64,000 nt of DNA from Candidatus Aenigmatarchaeota archaeon (GCA_016932735.1 JAFGCI010000006.1:36167-100166), one strand, 5' to 3'; positions 5,678 through 21,251 are shown, counted from the first letter of the stretch. Notes: a model not told the origin generated them from the sequence alone. Translations and numbers: made by a program.

Positions 5678-6499
5678 TCAGAATCTCTGAAAGTATTTTA
5701 CAAGCTCATTTGCGAATTCCCTTTTTTTATCCGGAAAGGCATGAGTCCCATCAAATTCAATCGTTTTGACATTTGCCCCGAATTCTTCTAGTCTTCTGGA
5801 AAGCAGCCTTGAGTTGTGTATAGTCATTATTTCATCGCCTTTCGCCGAGATTGTAAGAACATTAAGTCCTGTCAAATCTGGCTCCATATCACTAAAGGGC
5901 GTCTGCATCGACATAAGATTAATTAGGCTGCTTGCAATCTGGTAATATCCTTCTCCTCTAAGGTCGTTATACCCGAAAACTGGCTTCAGTACGTTGCCAT
6001 CGAGAAAAAACCCTTTGCCGTTTTTGCTGTTATGAAGTTCCGGATGCTTGAAAGGTCTCTGAAACATGTTCAGAAGCCCCTTACGGATATCGGTTCCTCC
6101 GCATCCTATAGCCATGCAGGATATATAGTCCTTTATTTGTTCTGCAACTCTTGCCATTGGATAACTGCTCAGGCTGATTGCAGCAAACATTCTCTTTTTT
6201 CTTTCGGGGTTTCTTCTTGCATATCCAATCAGCTGTTCTTCATGGACTATGTGATCATATCTCCTGATGGGGTGGCGGCCATGCCCCGGCAGGAATATAT
6301 AAGTCACTCCTATTCCTTCTCTGTTTGCTGTTTCATGTAAATACTGAAAAGTTTCTTTTTGTGGGTTTTCCAGATCGTTTCCCACGCCTGCAGAAAAGAC
6401 TATCTCTGAATCATTATTTCCGTATCTTATGAAAGGGACTTCGTATCTTCTGGATTTTCTTCCGACTGAATATGTCCCTTCGGCTGCCTGTAAACTCAT
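5678..6499 (-). CDS. hypothetical protein (273 aa)
   Basis: Long ORF with coding-like composition. No family recognised from the sequence. Confidence 0.5.
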   Translation of the reverse strand: MSLQAAEGTYSVGRKSRRYEVPFIRYGNNDSEIVFSAGVGNDLENPQKETFQYLHETANREGIGVTYIFLPGHGRHPIRRYDHIVHEEQLIGYARRNPERKKRMFAAISLSSYPMARVAEQIKDYISCMAIGCGGTDIRKGLLNMFQRPFKHPELHNSKNGKGFFLDGNVLKPVFGYNDLRGEGYYQIASSLINLMSMQTPFSDMEPDLTGLNVLTISAKGDEIMTIHNSRLLSRRLEEFGANVKTIEFDGTHAFPDKKREFANELVKYFQRF

Positions 6500-6523
6500 A
6501 AGATTCTAATGAAAGAAAATTAT

Positions 6524-7351
6524 TTATTCAAGTATTACACGGTCAATCTTTGCGACTTGTGACTTGGTTTTTCCTAAACCTGAGAATTTGACTGATGAAG
6601 AACCTATCCCAACTATGCTTCCTTCGATTGCGAAGAAAACATTATCTCCCTTCTTTATTCCTGAATCGAAATCGCTGACATAATCCCCGATTATCGGTTT
6701 CCCGTTTCTTACGTCCTGCCCGTTTTCTTTTTTTATCGAAATCCTTTTTACCCCGACCTTCAGGAGGACATCCTCTATCTCAAGAAGATGAGCTTCAGGC
6801 TCCTTCTCCAGCCTTTCAAGCGTGACGGCCTCATCGACGCTGAATGGTCCTACTCCCGTCCTCCTGAGCCATGACATCTGCGCTCCGCTTCCGGCCTTTT
6901 CGCCCATGTCGTGGCAGATTTTTCTGATGTATGTTCCGGCCTCGCAGAGAATCCGGAAGGAAACCAATCTTCCGTTAGTTTCAAGGATTTCAAAGGAACG
7001 GACGATCCTTTCCCTTTCCTTTCTTGCGACTGCCGATTTCACAGGCGGAATCTGCTTTATTTTTCCGGTGAACTGTTTTGCAAGTTCTTTTACAGAATCT
7101 TCTGAAATATCTTCATGAAAAAGCATCTCGCCTTCATACTCCTTGTCCATTCCATTAAGGAGGGGCATACACTTCCTCGCTTCACCAAGAGCTATAAGAA
7201 GGAGTCCTGTGACGTTTGGGTCAAGCGTTCCTGCATGACCTGCCTTTTCTATTCCCAGAATTCTCGTGACTGATTCGACTACATCGAATGATGTCGGGCC
7301 TGCTGGTTTGTCTATTAGGACGACGGACTTTTGTAAATTCGCCATAACCAT
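6524..7351 (-). CDS. cbf5: tRNA/rRNA pseudouridine synthase Cbf5 (TruB family, with PUA domain)
   Basis: The 'GHAGTLDPNVTGLL' catalytic motif, N-terminal 'IDKPAGPTSFDVV' and a C-terminal PUA-like region. Confidence 0.85.
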   Translation of the reverse strand: MVMANLQKSVVLIDKPAGPTSFDVVESVTRILGIEKAGHAGTLDPNVTGLLLIALGEARKCMPLLNGMDKEYEGEMLFHEDISEDSVKELAKQFTGKIKQIPPVKSAVARKERERIVRSFEILETNGRLVSFRILCEAGTYIRKICHDMGEKAGSGAQMSWLRRTGVGPFSVDEAVTLERLEKEPEAHLLEIEDVLLKVGVKRISIKKENGQDVRNGKPIIGDYVSDFDSGIKKGDNVFFAIEGSIVGIGSSSVKFSGLGKTKSQVAKIDRVILE

Positions 7352-7383
7352 GAATTGTTTTATATCTTATTTAATTCCTTCAT

Positions 7384-16647: not shown

Positions 16648-16751
16648 TGTTCGCTTTCTGCCCGAATAGGGCGCAAATAACGAATAAAATTCGTTAAATA
16701 GTTGTTTTTCTCAATAGATTTTTCACTACTGGCTCTTGCTTCAATTGGTTA

Positions 16752-16765
16752 GGAAAACGGGGGGG
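16752..16765. repeat. left inverted repeat aaaacGGGGGGGGG (G9 homopolymer) of cassette 1
   Basis: Perfect reverse complement of 19299-19312. A second shared 12-mer (tagatttttcac, about 16716-16727) lies about 30 nt outside. Confidence 0.7.
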
Positions 16766-16810
16766 GGAGCTATAATACTATTTTATAAATAATGTTTTCA
16801 ATTTTGGAAT

Positions 16811-17683
16811 ATGCCGAAAAGAAATATGTTGTGGATTTCATTTGCTGTCATTTTTTTGATTTCATTTAGTGGGTGTATCCAACAAAACACGAAAGAAAAT
16901 GCAGAATCAATCGCACAGGAATTTGCTATAAATTTACAAAAATCAGACTATGAAAGCTTATATGATTTATTCATACCTGATCTCAAAAGCATGAGAAAAA
17001 AATCAGATTTCGTTAAATATGTGAATATAAAAGGATCGCCACTTGATAACAATTATATAATTTTTGACAAAGTCGTAATGCAGGGAGATAATGAAGCTTA
17101 TGCATATTATACGTTATCAAGTGGCATATTTGAGGCTAAAGTTCCTCCTATGCATTTGATTTTTACGTCGGAAGGTTGGCGTGTTGACGCATTTTCAGAT
17201 TACTTTTCTGCTGGATGCATCATAGATGATGACTGTTCAGCAGATTATCCTCGGTGTAGCAAAAATTTAGAATGTGTAAAATGTGTAAGTGATGCAGATT
17301 GCTCCGATTCGGGAAAGAAGCATTGTGATAGTGTTCTTAATATCTGTCATGAATGTATAGAAGATTACCATTGTCCCAAAGATAAACCAATATGCTATGG
17401 GTTTAGTTGTATTGAATGTAGGAAAAATTCAGATTGCCCAACAGAAACTCCATATTGTAATTATGTGTTAGGCAGTGGTTATGTTTGCAATAATAATCCT
17501 ACCGGGATAGAATGTATAGAGGATGTAGATTGTATCGTACTTTATGGAACAAAAAAGATGTATTGTAATGCGAATGGAAAGTATATTAGATTTACTCACG
17601 AGGATGAATGCATTTATTGCAGAGACGAATCAGACTGTCCTAGAGGAAAAGATTATTGCATTTCAGGTGAATTCTGTGTCTAA
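16811..17683 (+). CDS. putative lipoprotein with C-terminal cysteine-rich repeats
   Basis: Signal and lipobox-like 'FLISFSGC'. The C-terminal half has four 'C-x2-C-x3-5-DC-x5-8-C' repeats (e.g. CVKCVSDADCSDSGKKHC, CIECRKNSDCPTETPYC). Confidence 0.6.
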   Translation: MPKRNMLWISFAVIFLISFSGCIQQNTKENAESIAQEFAINLQKSDYESLYDLFIPDLKSMRKKSDFVKYVNIKGSPLDNNYIIFDKVVMQGDNEAYAYYTLSSGIFEAKVPPMHLIFTSEGWRVDAFSDYFSAGCIIDDDCSADYPRCSKNLECVKCVSDADCSDSGKKHCDSVLNICHECIEDYHCPKDKPICYGFSCIECRKNSDCPTETPYCNYVLGSGYVCNNNPTGIECIEDVDCIVLYGTKKMYCNANGKYIRFTHEDECIYCRDESDCPRGKDYCISGEFCV

Positions 17684-18104
17684 ACTTGGATATAGTGAAG
17701 ATGATAAAAGAAAACACCTTGAGTTTATTCAGTTGGCTATAAACAGAATGGCGGCTAATTCATTTATCCTAAAAGGTTGGAATATTACACTTGTTGTAGG
17801 TCTATTTGCTGTTTCAATAACAAAAAACCAAAATCTTTTTTTAATACTTGCTTTATTACCGGCCATTGCTTTCTGGGGTTTGGATTCATATTATCTGAGA
17901 AAAGAAAAACTGTTTCGTGAACTGTATAACTTTGTAAGGATGAGAGATAAGAGTCTAATAGATCCTTATTCATTGGAGACAAAGGAATTTGAGAAAAATA
18001 TCAAAAGTTGGTTTCATATACTATTTTCACGAACCGTGATAGTATTACATGGCCCCATAATTATATTTATTTTATGTTTTTCTATGATTCTATGGGGTGG
18101 TTAA
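17676..18104 (+). CDS. small 2-3 TM membrane protein (SLATT-like candidate effector), partner of the TIR-like protein
   Basis: It has an N-terminal amphipathic helix (DDKRKHLEFIQLAINRMAANSF). Three hydrophobic segments follow: 'WNITLVVGLFAVSI', 'LFLILALLPAIAFWGL' and C-terminal 'VIVLHGPIIIFILCFSMILWGG'. The stop TAA at 18102-18104 lies 2 nt before the TIR start. Start uncertain (GTG 17676 or ATG 17748). Confidence 0.5.
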   Translation: MSKLGYSEDDKRKHLEFIQLAINRMAANSFILKGWNITLVVGLFAVSITKNQNLFLILALLPAIAFWGLDSYYLRKEKLFRELYNFVRMRDKSLIDPYSLETKEFEKNIKSWFHILFSRTVIVLHGPIIIFILCFSMILWGG

Positions 18105-18106
18105 AT

Positions 18107-18598
18107 ATGGCAAGAAAAGTATTTTTCAGTTTTCATTATGAAAAGGATGCATGGAGAGCTGGACAGGTTAGAAATAGTAATGTCGTGCGTTCAGAAGATA
18201 CTACTGGATTCATAGATGCATCTGAATGGGAGAAAGTTAAAGAGAGAGGACAAGATGCAATTAAGAACTGGATTAATGAACAATTAAAAGGTACTTCGAT
18301 CACAGTAGTTCTAATTGGAAGTGAAACATCTGAAAGGGATTGGGTTAAATACGAACTTCAGAGAAGTTATGAAAAAGGAAATGCCTTTTTGGGGATATTC
18401 ATACATAATCTTGAAGATCAAGAAAAAAGAACAACGTCAAAGGGGGATACCCGATTTGGTGAATTAGGAAAAGATTCTGAAGGTAAATCTGTCTATTTAT
18501 TCCAACTCGCTAAGTTTTACGATTGGAAAAATGATGATGGTTACAACAATTTTACAAAATGGATTGAAGAAGCTATCTCAAACCAAAATGGAAACTAA
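18107..18598 (+). CDS. TIR-like domain protein (DUF1863 / ThsB-like)
   Basis: 'MARKVFFSFHYEKDAWRAGQVRN...ITVVLIGSETSERDWVKYELQRSYEKGNAFLGIFIH' carries the FFSFHY-x-D signature and the 'VLIGSET..R.WV.YE' pattern of Thoeris ThsB-type TIR domains. 163 aa from ATG 18107. Confidence 0.75.
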   Translation: MARKVFFSFHYEKDAWRAGQVRNSNVVRSEDTTGFIDASEWEKVKERGQDAIKNWINEQLKGTSITVVLIGSETSERDWVKYELQRSYEKGNAFLGIFIHNLEDQEKRTTSKGDTRFGELGKDSEGKSVYLFQLAKFYDWKNDDGYNNFTKWIEEAISNQNGN

Positions 18599-18975
18599 CT
18601 CTTCTTATACCCAAACTTCTTCTCATAATCCCTGTGGTTCATGATATCTAATATCAAAGAAATAATCTCGACTTCGTTGCCTCTTATAGTATATATCATT
18701 CTCCATGCTCCCGAAAGGTTGATTTTCCACAGGTTGTTTACATCATAATTTTTGATATATTCTTTTGGTGTTCTGTCTTTCGGGATATGAATTCCATATT
18801 GCGGGTTATCTCTTAACAACTCGATTTTCTGTTTAATAGAGTTAAGAAGCGTTTGGTGGTCACTGTTAGTAATACCCTTGGAAATCTCTTCGCCTACGAG
18901 TTTGTTCAAATCATCAAACTCTTCTTTAGCTTCTCCGGTAATAATGACTTTGGTGATCTTTCCTTTGAACATCAC
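18595..18975 (-). CDS. RelE/ParE-family type II toxin
   Basis: C-terminal 'NLWKINLSGAWRMIYTIRGNEVEIISLILDIMNHRDY' matches the RelE/YoeB-fold pattern. A 4-nt ATGA overlap links it to the upstream ORF. Confidence 0.7.
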   Translation of the reverse strand: MMFKGKITKVIITGEAKEEFDDLNKLVGEEISKGITNSDHQTLLNSIKQKIELLRDNPQYGIHIPKDRTPKEYIKNYDVNNLWKINLSGAWRMIYTIRGNEVEIISLILDIMNHRDYEKKFGYKKS

Positions 18976-19244
18976 AACTCAACTCCCTCTTTTATCGCCT
19001 TGTCAAGTTTCGGGCTGGGATTGTATATCCATAAAATTCCTTTCCTGCCGTCAATTATTTTACCGCTGTTCTCTAAATAGCTTAATATGACATTCAGCGT
19101 TTGGTGCATTATTTTTACAGGCAGTTTTTTCTTTATATCTTCCCGTGTCATTAATTCATTTGATTCCTTTAGAACTTCTTCTACCATTAACACAGTCTTC
19201 AGATTCGGGTAATGAATGACCTCGGCTTTTTGCATACAAAACAC
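18972..19244 (-). CDS. putative cognate antitoxin (90 aa)
   Basis: Upstream of the RelE-like gene on the minus strand and overlapping it by 4 nt. No antitoxin family recognised. Confidence 0.45.
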   Translation of the reverse strand: MFCMQKAEVIHYPNLKTVLMVEEVLKESNELMTREDIKKKLPVKIMHQTLNVILSYLENSGKIIDGRKGILWIYNPSPKLDKAIKEGVEL

Positions 19245-19298
19245 CTTGTATAAACTTATATAATATTATATATAGAAATATATAAACTTTTGCTTTCG

Positions 19299-19312
19299 CC
19301 CCCCCCCGTTTT
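19299..19312. repeat. right inverted repeat CCCCCCCCCgtttt (C9) of cassette 1
   Basis: Perfect reverse complement of 16752-16765. The 12-mer gtgaaaaatcta at 19343-19354 is the reverse complement of tagatttttcac at about 16716-16727. Confidence 0.7.
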
Positions 19313-19634
19313 CAATAACTTTGCGAGTTGGTTAGCTGTGAAGTGAAAAATCTACTCTCGCCTTCGGCTCGGTTTCCCTGCGGTCAACGAGAAAAACAGG
19401 AAATATGCGGGAAAACTATACAAAGTTGTTGAATTTTCCCCAAATTTCAGCTTCGCTGAAACTATCGCATATTTCCATCGGTTATGCTCAATTGCGAATC
19501 CGCCTCTGGCGAGGTTACCATAGAAAATTCTCTTGTTGTTGCCTTCGTTAAAATTCACAAAACGAAAAAATAACGAAATTGCTTTGCAAATCGTCTAACA
19601 AAATTTTAACGAAATTTTTTCTTATCTTTAACAA

Positions 19635-19645
19635 GGGTTGCCGCC
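19635..19645. repeat. inverted repeat gggttgccgcc (preceded by ttttttctt) bounding cassette 2
   Basis: Reverse complement of ggcggcaaccc at 20990-21000, which is followed by aaaagaaaaaa. Confidence 0.6.
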
Positions 19646-19646
19646 T

Positions 19647-20468
19647 TTACTTATCTTTCTCAATCAATACAAATAACATTAGAAGAAGCATAGTAGACCT
19701 TTGTTCATTATCATAGTTAATCTCTCTTCCATGTAAAATTGGGTGTCTGAAATCCTTTGAATAAACATTACTTTTAGTATGCTCGCCGAATTTTGAAGAA
19801 TTATTAAAAATTTTTATAATTAGTTCTCCCAGCGAACATTCTATTGGTTTTCCATTTTTCCCTAAAATTAAATTCCCTTTAACATCTATCAGATTTTTGC
19901 TATTAAATTTATTCTCGATTAATCCTTGATTAATTCCAATATCCCAAAGTATACCTTCAATTTGCGATAACAAAAGAGGAATAGAGCTTATATAATCCTT
20001 ATTTTTATGATGCTGAATAGCCTTTTCTAAAATCTTTTCTCTTGCTTTAATAATCTTATCCGTTCTTACCTTTGAAATCAATTCATTCAATAACTTGTCA
20101 TCTTCAAAATCAGATATTAGTTGTTTCCATACTTCTTCTTTTCCGCTCGCTTTAAGCTTATCCTTGAGTTCAGAAGCGTAAGACATTGATATTGCTTCAA
20201 TCCACCCAAATTCTTTAAGAAATTCTTCCCAGCCTTTGAAATCAAAATTTTTTGCTATCTCAGTAAGAGGTTTTAATGATTGTGCAATTGATTGAGATAG
20301 TAATTGCATTCTTTTAAATGGTTCAGTAAGTGCTTCCATTTGTGCCTGAAATTGCAGATTGAATAATTGAATTGGTGCCAGAGAAATAGAAATTTTATCA
20401 TGAAGTTCTTTCATTATTTTGTTTATTTGATCCAGATTATTCATTTGTATCATCTTCAAGTTCTTCAT
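19647..20468 (-). CDS. hypothetical protein with C-terminal HEPN-like Rx4H motif (candidate Abi-like nuclease)
   Basis: 273 aa, AT-rich. 'SKDFRHPILHGREI' fits R-x4-H. Lies 18 nt downstream of the SHOCT gene on the same strand. Confidence 0.45.
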   Translation of the reverse strand: MKNLKMIQMNNLDQINKIMKELHDKISISLAPIQLFNLQFQAQMEALTEPFKRMQLLSQSIAQSLKPLTEIAKNFDFKGWEEFLKEFGWIEAISMSYASELKDKLKASGKEEVWKQLISDFEDDKLLNELISKVRTDKIIKAREKILEKAIQHHKNKDYISSIPLLLSQIEGILWDIGINQGLIENKFNSKNLIDVKGNLILGKNGKPIECSLGELIIKIFNNSSKFGEHTKSNVYSKDFRHPILHGREINYDNEQRSTMLLLMLFVLIEKDK

Positions 20469-20486
20469 TGTCCATTTAAGACAGAA

Positions 20487-20942
20487 TTATAATCCAAGCA
20501 ATTTTTTCTTTTTTTGCTCAAATTCTTTTTGAGTTATAACTCCTTTCTTCATTAAACTATATAATTTCTCTATCTCATCTGCATCGCTAGAAGTAGATTT
20601 TTCTGAAGAACTATTTGCTTTCTCAATGTGTTCTTTTATTTCAAGAGCCTTTTCGTAATTATCTTTACCATTGAACGAAACCGTATTTTCATCACTTACT
20701 GCATTAAAAACGCCACCTCTAGCCTCAATACCTCCTGGCAAGGAAAATTGAATATATCCTGCGGTAAACCCTGGTTTTTTAATCTGAATTGAGGTTATAT
20801 TTTTGAAGTAAATATCTTTCTTTCCTTTTAACCCATGAATCATGAAACCCATTGCTGTTCCTCTATCTAGCCTAACAAATTTTTCATAAAGTTCTATTCT
20901 TCCATTTGTTCCTTTGAATTCAATTATTGGTTTTTGTTCCAT
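20487..20942 (-). CDS. SHOCT-domain protein with N-terminal bPH/DUF4429-like domain
   Basis: C-terminal 'EIEKLYSLMKKGVITQKEFEQKKKKLLGL' is a typical SHOCT motif. Start set at the internal MEQKPIIEF. Confidence 0.6.
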   Translation of the reverse strand: MEQKPIIEFKGTNGRIELYEKFVRLDRGTAMGFMIHGLKGKKDIYFKNITSIQIKKPGFTAGYIQFSLPGGIEARGGVFNAVSDENTVSFNGKDNYEKALEIKEHIEKANSSSEKSTSSDADEIEKLYSLMKKGVITQKEFEQKKKKLLGL

Positions 20943-20989
20943 GATAACACTATTATATCTAAGGAATTTATAAATTCTTCTAATTGAAC

Positions 20990-21000
20990 GGCGGCAACCC
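20990..21000. repeat. inverted repeat ggcggcaaccc (partner of 19635-19645)
   Basis: See the partner repeat. Confidence 0.6.
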
Positions 21001-21251
21001 CCAAAAGAAAAAACTACGGCAACAACGAATTTTCGGCGGACTCGCAACTCGAAATTTTTGCCTTCGGCATTGTTGCACTAAAATTTCGTCCTAACGGAGA
21101 GCATAACAGGGCTTAACCGACTACGAAACCTTGCAGGTTTCTCCGACCCAAATTTTTTCTTCAGCTCTGTTCCGCTTCGCTCCACGAGGAAGAAAAAACT
21201 TCCCTTAAGCCCGATGTTATACGCAGTTTCTATAACTAAAAAACAAGTCTC

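Follow-up and report, generated by a model that had tools for sequence, protein, structure and literature searches.

The type V Thoeris system was described in December 2025 by the Sorek lab (Yirmiya et al., bioRxiv 10.64898/2025.12.03.692087) and consists of ThsB together with ThsF, an effector with three transmembrane (TM) helices that is annotated as "DUF2270". Two Bacillus systems of this type protect B. subtilis, and both defence and the signal 3'cADPR are reported for Bacillus only. Type V ThsB proteins synthesise 3'cADPR on infection, cells with the B. thuringiensis system are poisoned when 3'cADPR is added, and the Tad1 sponge weakens type V defence (bioRxiv 10.64898/2025.12.03.692087). 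In the AlphaFold3 model of the same study, ThsF forms a heptameric, channel-like ring with basic pockets between the protomers. A second description that bears on the present work is PDC-M50, a multi-gene phage defence candidate found through "guilt by embedding" in BREX, DISARM and type I restriction-modification (RM) loci (Payne et al. 2024, bioRxiv 10.1101/2024.01.29.577857). Here we analyse two adjacent genes, termed A and B, in a 64,000-nucleotide (nt) stretch of DNA from Candidatus Aenigmatarchaeota archaeon (GCA_016932735.1 JAFGCI010000006.1:36167-100166). This whole stretch is called the window, and all coordinates are counted from its first letter.

The locus is an archaeal member of the known type V Thoeris and not a new system, since the type was catalogued in 2024 and validated in bacteria in 2025. 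An earlier reading of the window, made from the sequence alone (the original prediction), had taken the combination for an undescribed system type; that claim falls to the PDC-M50 (2024) and type V (2025) reports. We consider it likely that A and B form a type V Thoeris antiviral system, with the order thsF then thsB, on an island that a DPANN archaeon acquired horizontally. Most likely B is the TIR signal generator and the small membrane protein A is its effector, the division of labour that had been proposed originally.

The gene pair and its assignment to described systems

The two coupled genes occupy positions 17676-18598, as originally predicted. The genes and the translation signals read from the sequence are:

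17676..18104, + strand: gene A, thsF-like effector gene; GTG start, TAA stop at 18102-18104, 142 amino acids (aa)
18107..18598, + strand: gene B, thsB; ATG start, stop at 18596-18598, 163 aa, TIR-like protein
17665..17670, + strand: Shine-Dalgarno-like AGGTGA, 5 nt before the GTG of gene A, within the end of the upstream gene
18094..18100, + strand: Shine-Dalgarno-like GGGGTGG, 6 nt before the ATG of gene B, within the last codons of gene A

Exactly 2 nt separate A from B, a spacing consistent with translational coupling. The first 8 nt of gene A are shared with the end of the upstream gene, and the AGGTGA ahead of gene A may serve in ribosome binding. Start and product of gene A are those of NCBI JW716_03885 (100% identity and coverage), located on a 217-kb contig of a Candidatus Aenigmarchaeota metagenome-assembled genome, and the "TIR domain-containing protein" adjoining that entry is the product of gene B, which begins MARKVFFSFHYEKDAWRAG. 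Homologues reaching 1e-52 for A and 1e-61 for B exclude chance open reading frames (ORFs); compared with their families, the two ORFs are unbroken and complete in length, with every invariant residue present.

The PADLOC search that the original prediction had called for returned strong matches for both proteins. A matches all four of the PDC-M50A models in PADLOC-DB v2 (best 4.9e-44), and B matches PDC-M50B at 6.5e-59. The name PDC-M50 was not found in the main texts of the literature and occurs in a supplementary table only.

The connection to type V Thoeris runs through the TIR partners. Over 153 aa, B shares 59% identity with IMG 2700872892, an entry labelled "DUF2270 - Type V" in Table S1 of the type V study, and the Table S1 TIRs most like B carry that label. 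Another entry so labelled, IMG 2517817383, is sequence-identical to the TIR of Phocaeicola barnesiae DSM 18169 (locus L077), whose only operon partner is a homologue of A (47% identical, 2e-37). Relatives of validated ThsB proteins lead to the same family of effectors. Thalassobacillus devorans (L003) has an A homologue, 50% identical to A, that abuts a TIR sharing 71% identity with the validated ThsB of Bacillus sp. 1NLA3E, and on Terribacillus and Priestia plasmids A homologues adjoin TIRs that are 47-49% identical to the validated B. thuringiensis ThsB. The TIR subfamilies found beside A homologues are the same set as the TIR clusters labelled type V in Table S1. Judged by these operon partners of listed or validated-like ThsB proteins, effector A is a member of the authors' ThsF family. 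The features that mark a type V locus are found here: an adjacent ThsB gene on the same strand, a conserved catalytic Glu, an effector of the ThsF family and three TM helices.

The gene for the closest ThsB homologue, on a B. cereus plasmid, has no A homologue beside it. Plasmid p.1 of B. cereus CTMA_1571 has a TIR-rich island (L081, 1285-5726) in which a gene of the SIR2 family accompanies three TIR-type genes; the product of one TIR-type gene shares 53% identity with the ThsB of the validated B. thuringiensis type V system. No ThsF homologue was detected on this island, and the 780 bp after the B. thuringiensis-like ThsB gene contain no ORF of 60 aa or more.

Properties of the two proteins and a proposed mechanism

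The identification of B as a ThsB-like TIR protein, made at the outset from sequence motifs, was borne out by profile and structure matches. B matches Pfam family PF08937 (ThsB_TIR) at 1.9e-25 and the PADLOC ThsB model at 5.1e-65, and the solved structures matching it are 9b7d (ThsB1) and 6lhy (B. cereus ThsB), both at about 1e-31. It shares 46% identity with the TIR domain of the type I ThsB of B. cereus MSX-D12. We aligned B with 39 B-type proteins encoded beside A homologues and with B. cereus ThsB, giving 41 sequences. Residue E83 of B is invariant in all 41 and falls in the column of E85 of B. cereus ThsB, which is reported to be the catalytic residue (Ofir et al. 2021). B is predicted from its sequence to be a nucleotide-signal generator with E83 as catalytic Glu, and it is likely a signal producer of the type I ThsB class, that is, of 3'cADPR.

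Protein A has no Pfam match at E <= 1 and no NCBIfam assignment. Hydropathy analysis gives three hydrophobic segments (approximately residues 35-50, 54-72 and 119-141), and an AlphaFold2 model built from a 19-sequence alignment (pLDDT 94) has long helices at 8-50, 54-89 and 119-141 together with two short helices. The resulting layout is an N-terminal cytosolic helix, a TM1-TM2 hairpin, a basic cytosolic segment at 73-118 and a C-terminal TM3. The original prediction had described a protein of approximately 120-140 aa with two to three TM helices and an N-terminal amphipathic helix. Size and membrane character stand, at 142 aa and three TM helices; the N-terminal helix runs continuously into TM1 and is not strongly amphipathic (hydrophobic moment 0.39 on the KD scale). 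A further proposal, that the protein resembles SLATT or 2TM effectors, is rejected because no SLATT Pfam family matches at E <= 1 and there are three TM helices. Nor did Pfam show any match to a Macro domain in the 142 aa.

Lys and Arg residues are clustered in protein A, with six in positions 1-34, ten in 73-118 and none in the 51-53 loop. This charge distribution, which like the hydropathy agrees with the AlphaFold2 model, predicts that the N-terminus lies inside (N-in) and that the conserved polar residues face the cytosol. The conserved polar and basic residues Q19, R24, K33, D70, E77, R81 and Y84 lie on the predicted cytosolic face, a placement that would fit the basic-pocket oligomer of the type V study and is suggestive only.

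These properties, taken with the literature on relatives, lead us to propose the following sequence of events. ThsB would sense viral infection, whereupon its TIR active site, with E83, would act on NAD+ to make an isomer of cyclic ADP-ribose, of which 3'cADPR is the most probable. The signal would bind basic pockets on the cytosolic face of ThsF, built by the N-terminal helix and the helix after TM2. ThsF itself would be a homo-oligomer of three-TM subunits, and the bound signal would open or disrupt the membrane, so that the infected cell halts growth or dies before the viral cycle is completed. The defence phenotype, the infection-dependent production of 3'cADPR, its toxicity and the heptamer are carried over by analogy from the literature on relatives. 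For this locus we infer the location of the pocket, the activity in an archaeal membrane and the identity of the signal, the last because the validated systems use other TIR kinds and 3'cADPR failed to trigger the second of them. By analogy, the choice of 3'cADPR is supported by the resemblance of B to the 3'cADPR-producing type I ThsB and by the response of one ThsF to 3'cADPR.

Several observations weigh against the assignment to type V or against this choice of signal. The validated type V TIRs fall in other clusters than B, and none of the tested systems has a ThsB of the "FFSFHY" type. With the second validated system, that of Bacillus sp. 1NLA3E, 3'cADPR was not toxic, so the signal may differ between type V variants; the effector labels of Table S1 were derived from cluster representatives and are noisy (bioRxiv 10.64898/2025.12.03.692087). 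In addition, PF10028 (DUF2270), the Pfam family from which the ThsF label is drawn, has no match to A at E <= 1. Thirty family members, A included, were scanned with this profile; four matched, all below threshold. The best score was 19.5 bits, against a cut-off of 25, and covered profile positions 23-92 of 184, the region of the TM hairpin only. Because the PF10028 matches stay below threshold, the "DUF2270" label of the ThsF family therefore denotes a loose or remote relationship; membership of A in the authors' ThsF cluster is unaffected.

The ThsF family and its partners across genomes

Clustering at 90% identity divides the family to which A belongs into more than 7,000 groups, and 5,606 representatives remain at 50% identity (E <= 1e-3); at least 545 species genomes carry a member. 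The ThsF family is thus very large and lies effectively outside Pfam coverage. The only recurrent Pfam matches, all sub-threshold, are to PF10028 and PF11683 (DUF3278). Because Pfam coverage is effectively absent and "DUF2270" stays below threshold, standard annotation (PGAP/RefSeq) names the members "hypothetical protein".

We surveyed the 80 best genomic loci with A homologues. A close homologue of B lies immediately downstream of the A homologue in 45 of them, and in 40 of these 45 the two genes are predicted to lie -26 to +21 nt apart (median about 5). At most of the other loci a TIR-like gene of another kind adjoins the A homologue. With a panel of TIR queries, a same-strand TIR-like gene was found within 400 bp on either side of the A homologue at 62 of the 80 loci, which answers the question, raised with the original prediction, of whether the pair co-occurs elsewhere. 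Of the loci without such a gene, most stop at the edge of a contig or show a partner gene that is interrupted or decayed. The neighbouring TIRs are of several kinds (ThsB_TIR, TIR_2, CAP12-PCTIR_TIR and TIRs with long N-terminal extensions), and either gene of the pair may come first. The commonest ThsB partner of ThsF in this sample, that of the 45 loci, is a TIR subtype outside the experimentally tested systems.

Seven of the 80 loci are archaeal, and the family also occurs on haloarchaeal plasmids. Close relatives of the pair are present in Pacearchaeota, Nanoarchaeota and Altiarchaeales as well as in Aenigmarchaeota, so that type V Thoeris is documented here in DPANN archaea. Archaeal relatives that are 59-65% identical keep the same pair in differing genomic contexts; one (P0060), on a different contig, has a ThsB_TIR gene 1 nt away and is surrounded by ribosomal and translation genes. 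Bacteria and archaea alike retain the two genes as a unit, and the pair shows horizontal mobility.

At eight loci (L008, L016, L036, L041, L047, L054, L063 and L071) TIR genes of different subfamilies flank the A homologue on both sides; in one such arrangement the upstream TIR is of the 1NLA3E or B. thuringiensis type and the downstream one of the canonical ThsB type. Such loci suggest that a single ThsF effector serves several TIR sensors. In one family member of 378 aa (P0298), a SLOG domain (LD_cluster2, 1.7e-15, with weak STALD similarity) precedes the A domain, a fusion that would be expected if A is a nucleotide-activated effector module.

The range of partners bears on which of the two proteins acts as the effector. 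If the roles were reversed, the TIR would be a toxic NADase effector and the membrane protein a sensor, anchor or regulator of envelope perturbation or viral entry. The type V study allows for TIRs as effectors in unverified configurations (bioRxiv 10.64898/2025.12.03.692087), and at one locus (L064) the A homologue is followed by a TIR of the CAP12/Pycsar effector type (PF10137, 2.1e-22). We regard such a reversal as unlikely, however, since the closest characterised relatives of B are signal-producing ThsB proteins, 3'cADPR supplied from outside proved toxic only where cells had one validated type V system, and the ThsB of that system, on its own, made the signal on infection. The association of the A family with several unrelated TIR subfamilies, and its one SLOG fusion, is also a pattern that fits a signal-receiving effector.

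The spacing of the genes could be read in favour of a mechanism with no diffusible signal, in which the TIR would bind the membrane protein directly and release or gate it on infection, in the manner of a toxin-antitoxin or abortive-infection system. Tight coupling (2 nt here, with homologues showing a median gap of about 5 nt) would favour stoichiometric co-production, and a ParE-like toxin-antitoxin pair lies on the same island. But the invariance of the catalytic Glu in the 41 aligned sequences argues for enzymatic activity, and the acceptance by A homologues of unrelated TIR subfamilies, in either gene order, is hard to square with a specific interface. Sponge proteins that sequester 3'cADPR also lowered type V defence (bioRxiv 10.64898/2025.12.03.692087). 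Direct binding seems to us distinctly improbable, and we retain the reading of B as producer and A as receiver of a nucleotide signal.

That signal need not be 3'cADPR in every case. It is conceivable, though we would call it doubtful, that ThsF with an "FFSFHY" ThsB partner answers a different signal, and that in DPANN or other archaea it acts on archaeal viruses in ether-lipid membranes. Were another signal or action on archaeal viruses to prove true, TIR second-messenger immunity would be extended experimentally to archaea.

A number of family members and loci depart from the common arrangement. In P0385 (351 aa) the ThsF-like domain is preceded by an 8xMP "octameric membrane protein" domain (1.6e-27), and in P0297 and P0416 it carries N-terminal extensions of no recognised type. 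In Candidatus Poriferisodalis sp. (L045, 6001-7502) the gene after the ThsF homologue overlaps it by 4 nt and encodes not a TIR but a 367-aa protein with a match to the helical domain of 5-hmdU DNA kinase (PF18723, 5e-107), an unusual partner for a ThsF homologue; a weak TIR-like ORF lies 1.25 kb beyond it. At five loci (L005, L006, L022, L037 and L049) no TIR gene was detected within 2 kb of the ThsF homologue. In the first of these the gene downstream (6470-7366) encodes a 298-aa protein without a Pfam match. Such TIR-less homologues could be orphan effectors or could have unrecognised partners.

The genomic island and comparison with known systems

The pair lies on an accessory island of low GC content, 33.3% as against 43.5% in the rest of the window, and the island is probably of foreign origin. 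Its extent and its other genes are:

16650..21100, no strand: low-GC accessory island holding the pair, approximately 4.5 kb, between nrdD/nrdG and the rpoH-rpoB-rpoA operon
16811-17683: Cys-rich putative lipoprotein gene, 290 aa, signal/lipoprotein-like N-terminus, many C..D.DC repeats
18595-18975: ParE-like toxin (PF05016 at 3e-4, below threshold)
18972-19244: 90-aa ORF upstream of the ParE-like toxin and overlapping it
19647-20468: 273-aa protein without assigned function
20487-21047: DUF4429-SHOCT protein

No Pfam or PADLOC model matches the Cys-rich protein, which is missing from every one of the 80 related loci. The other island genes likewise lack PADLOC matches, and none recurs beside the pair in those loci. 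The upstream lipoprotein, the ParE-like pair and the remaining island genes were for these reasons rejected as components of the system. In a weaker variant of the doubtful reading in which ThsF answers a different signal or acts on archaeal viruses, the lipoprotein whose gene overlaps gene A by 8 nt would be a lineage-specific third component.

An archaeal host, already recognised in the original prediction, agrees with the Candidatus Aenigmarchaeota contig and fits the RpoH (Rpb5 C-terminal domain) gene just downstream; the large ORFs that follow the RpoH gene are presumed to encode RNA-polymerase subunits. A PADLOC scan of the 46 window ORFs of at least 180 aa gave weak to moderate matches elsewhere in the window to mad2 (two ORFs, best 1.8e-8), pVip (6.9e-11), and LeoA and LeoBC (approximately 1e-6 to 1e-7). 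Such matches probably reflect cross-hits from housekeeping proteins of the radical-SAM and GTPase kinds.

A probably foreign island of low GC content, with no other PADLOC defence system immediately beside the pair, might also be expected if the locus were a decayed or non-functional passenger, or had a role other than defence. Against this, both ORFs are intact and of full length with their invariant residues kept, and the archaeal relatives, at 59-65% identity, retain the pair in differing contexts. We find a passenger locus scarcely plausible, and compare the pair with the known systems as a type V Thoeris.

As a discovery the locus carries little weight, since its architecture has been known since 2024 (PDC-M50) and was validated in 2025 (type V Thoeris). 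Type I Thoeris, represented by B. cereus MSX-D12 with ThsB and a SIR2-SLOG ThsA, resembles it in the TIR protein, which is 46% identical and has the same catalytic Glu. The type I effector, however, is the SIR2-SLOG NADase ThsA, whereas here it is a small membrane protein; as originally noted, no ThsA-type protein (SIR2, SLOG or Macro) is found among the neighbours or the 46 scanned ORFs. Types II and VII follow an analogous logic, in which a TIR signal generator is coupled to a membrane-disrupting effector. The type II effector combines TM helices with a Macro domain, whereas protein A has neither a Macro domain nor a separate globular sensor domain. Type VII is defined by SLATT effectors (bioRxiv 10.64898/2025.12.03.692087), from which protein A differs in its three TM helices and its lack of a SLATT match.

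PDC-M50 and type V are two names for the arrangement to which we assign the locus. The adjacent genes A and B strongly match the two PDC-M50 models; PDC-M50 came to light inside loci of BREX, DISARM and type I RM systems, whereas the pair here stands outside them. From the validated type V systems the locus differs in its host, a DPANN archaeon rather than Bacillus, in its TIR, which is of the canonical PF08937 "FFSFHY" kind where the two validated systems use other kinds, and in having the effector gene first. It shares with them the two-gene operon of a TIR protein and a three-TM effector of approximately 135-140 aa, and the effectors belong to the same family.

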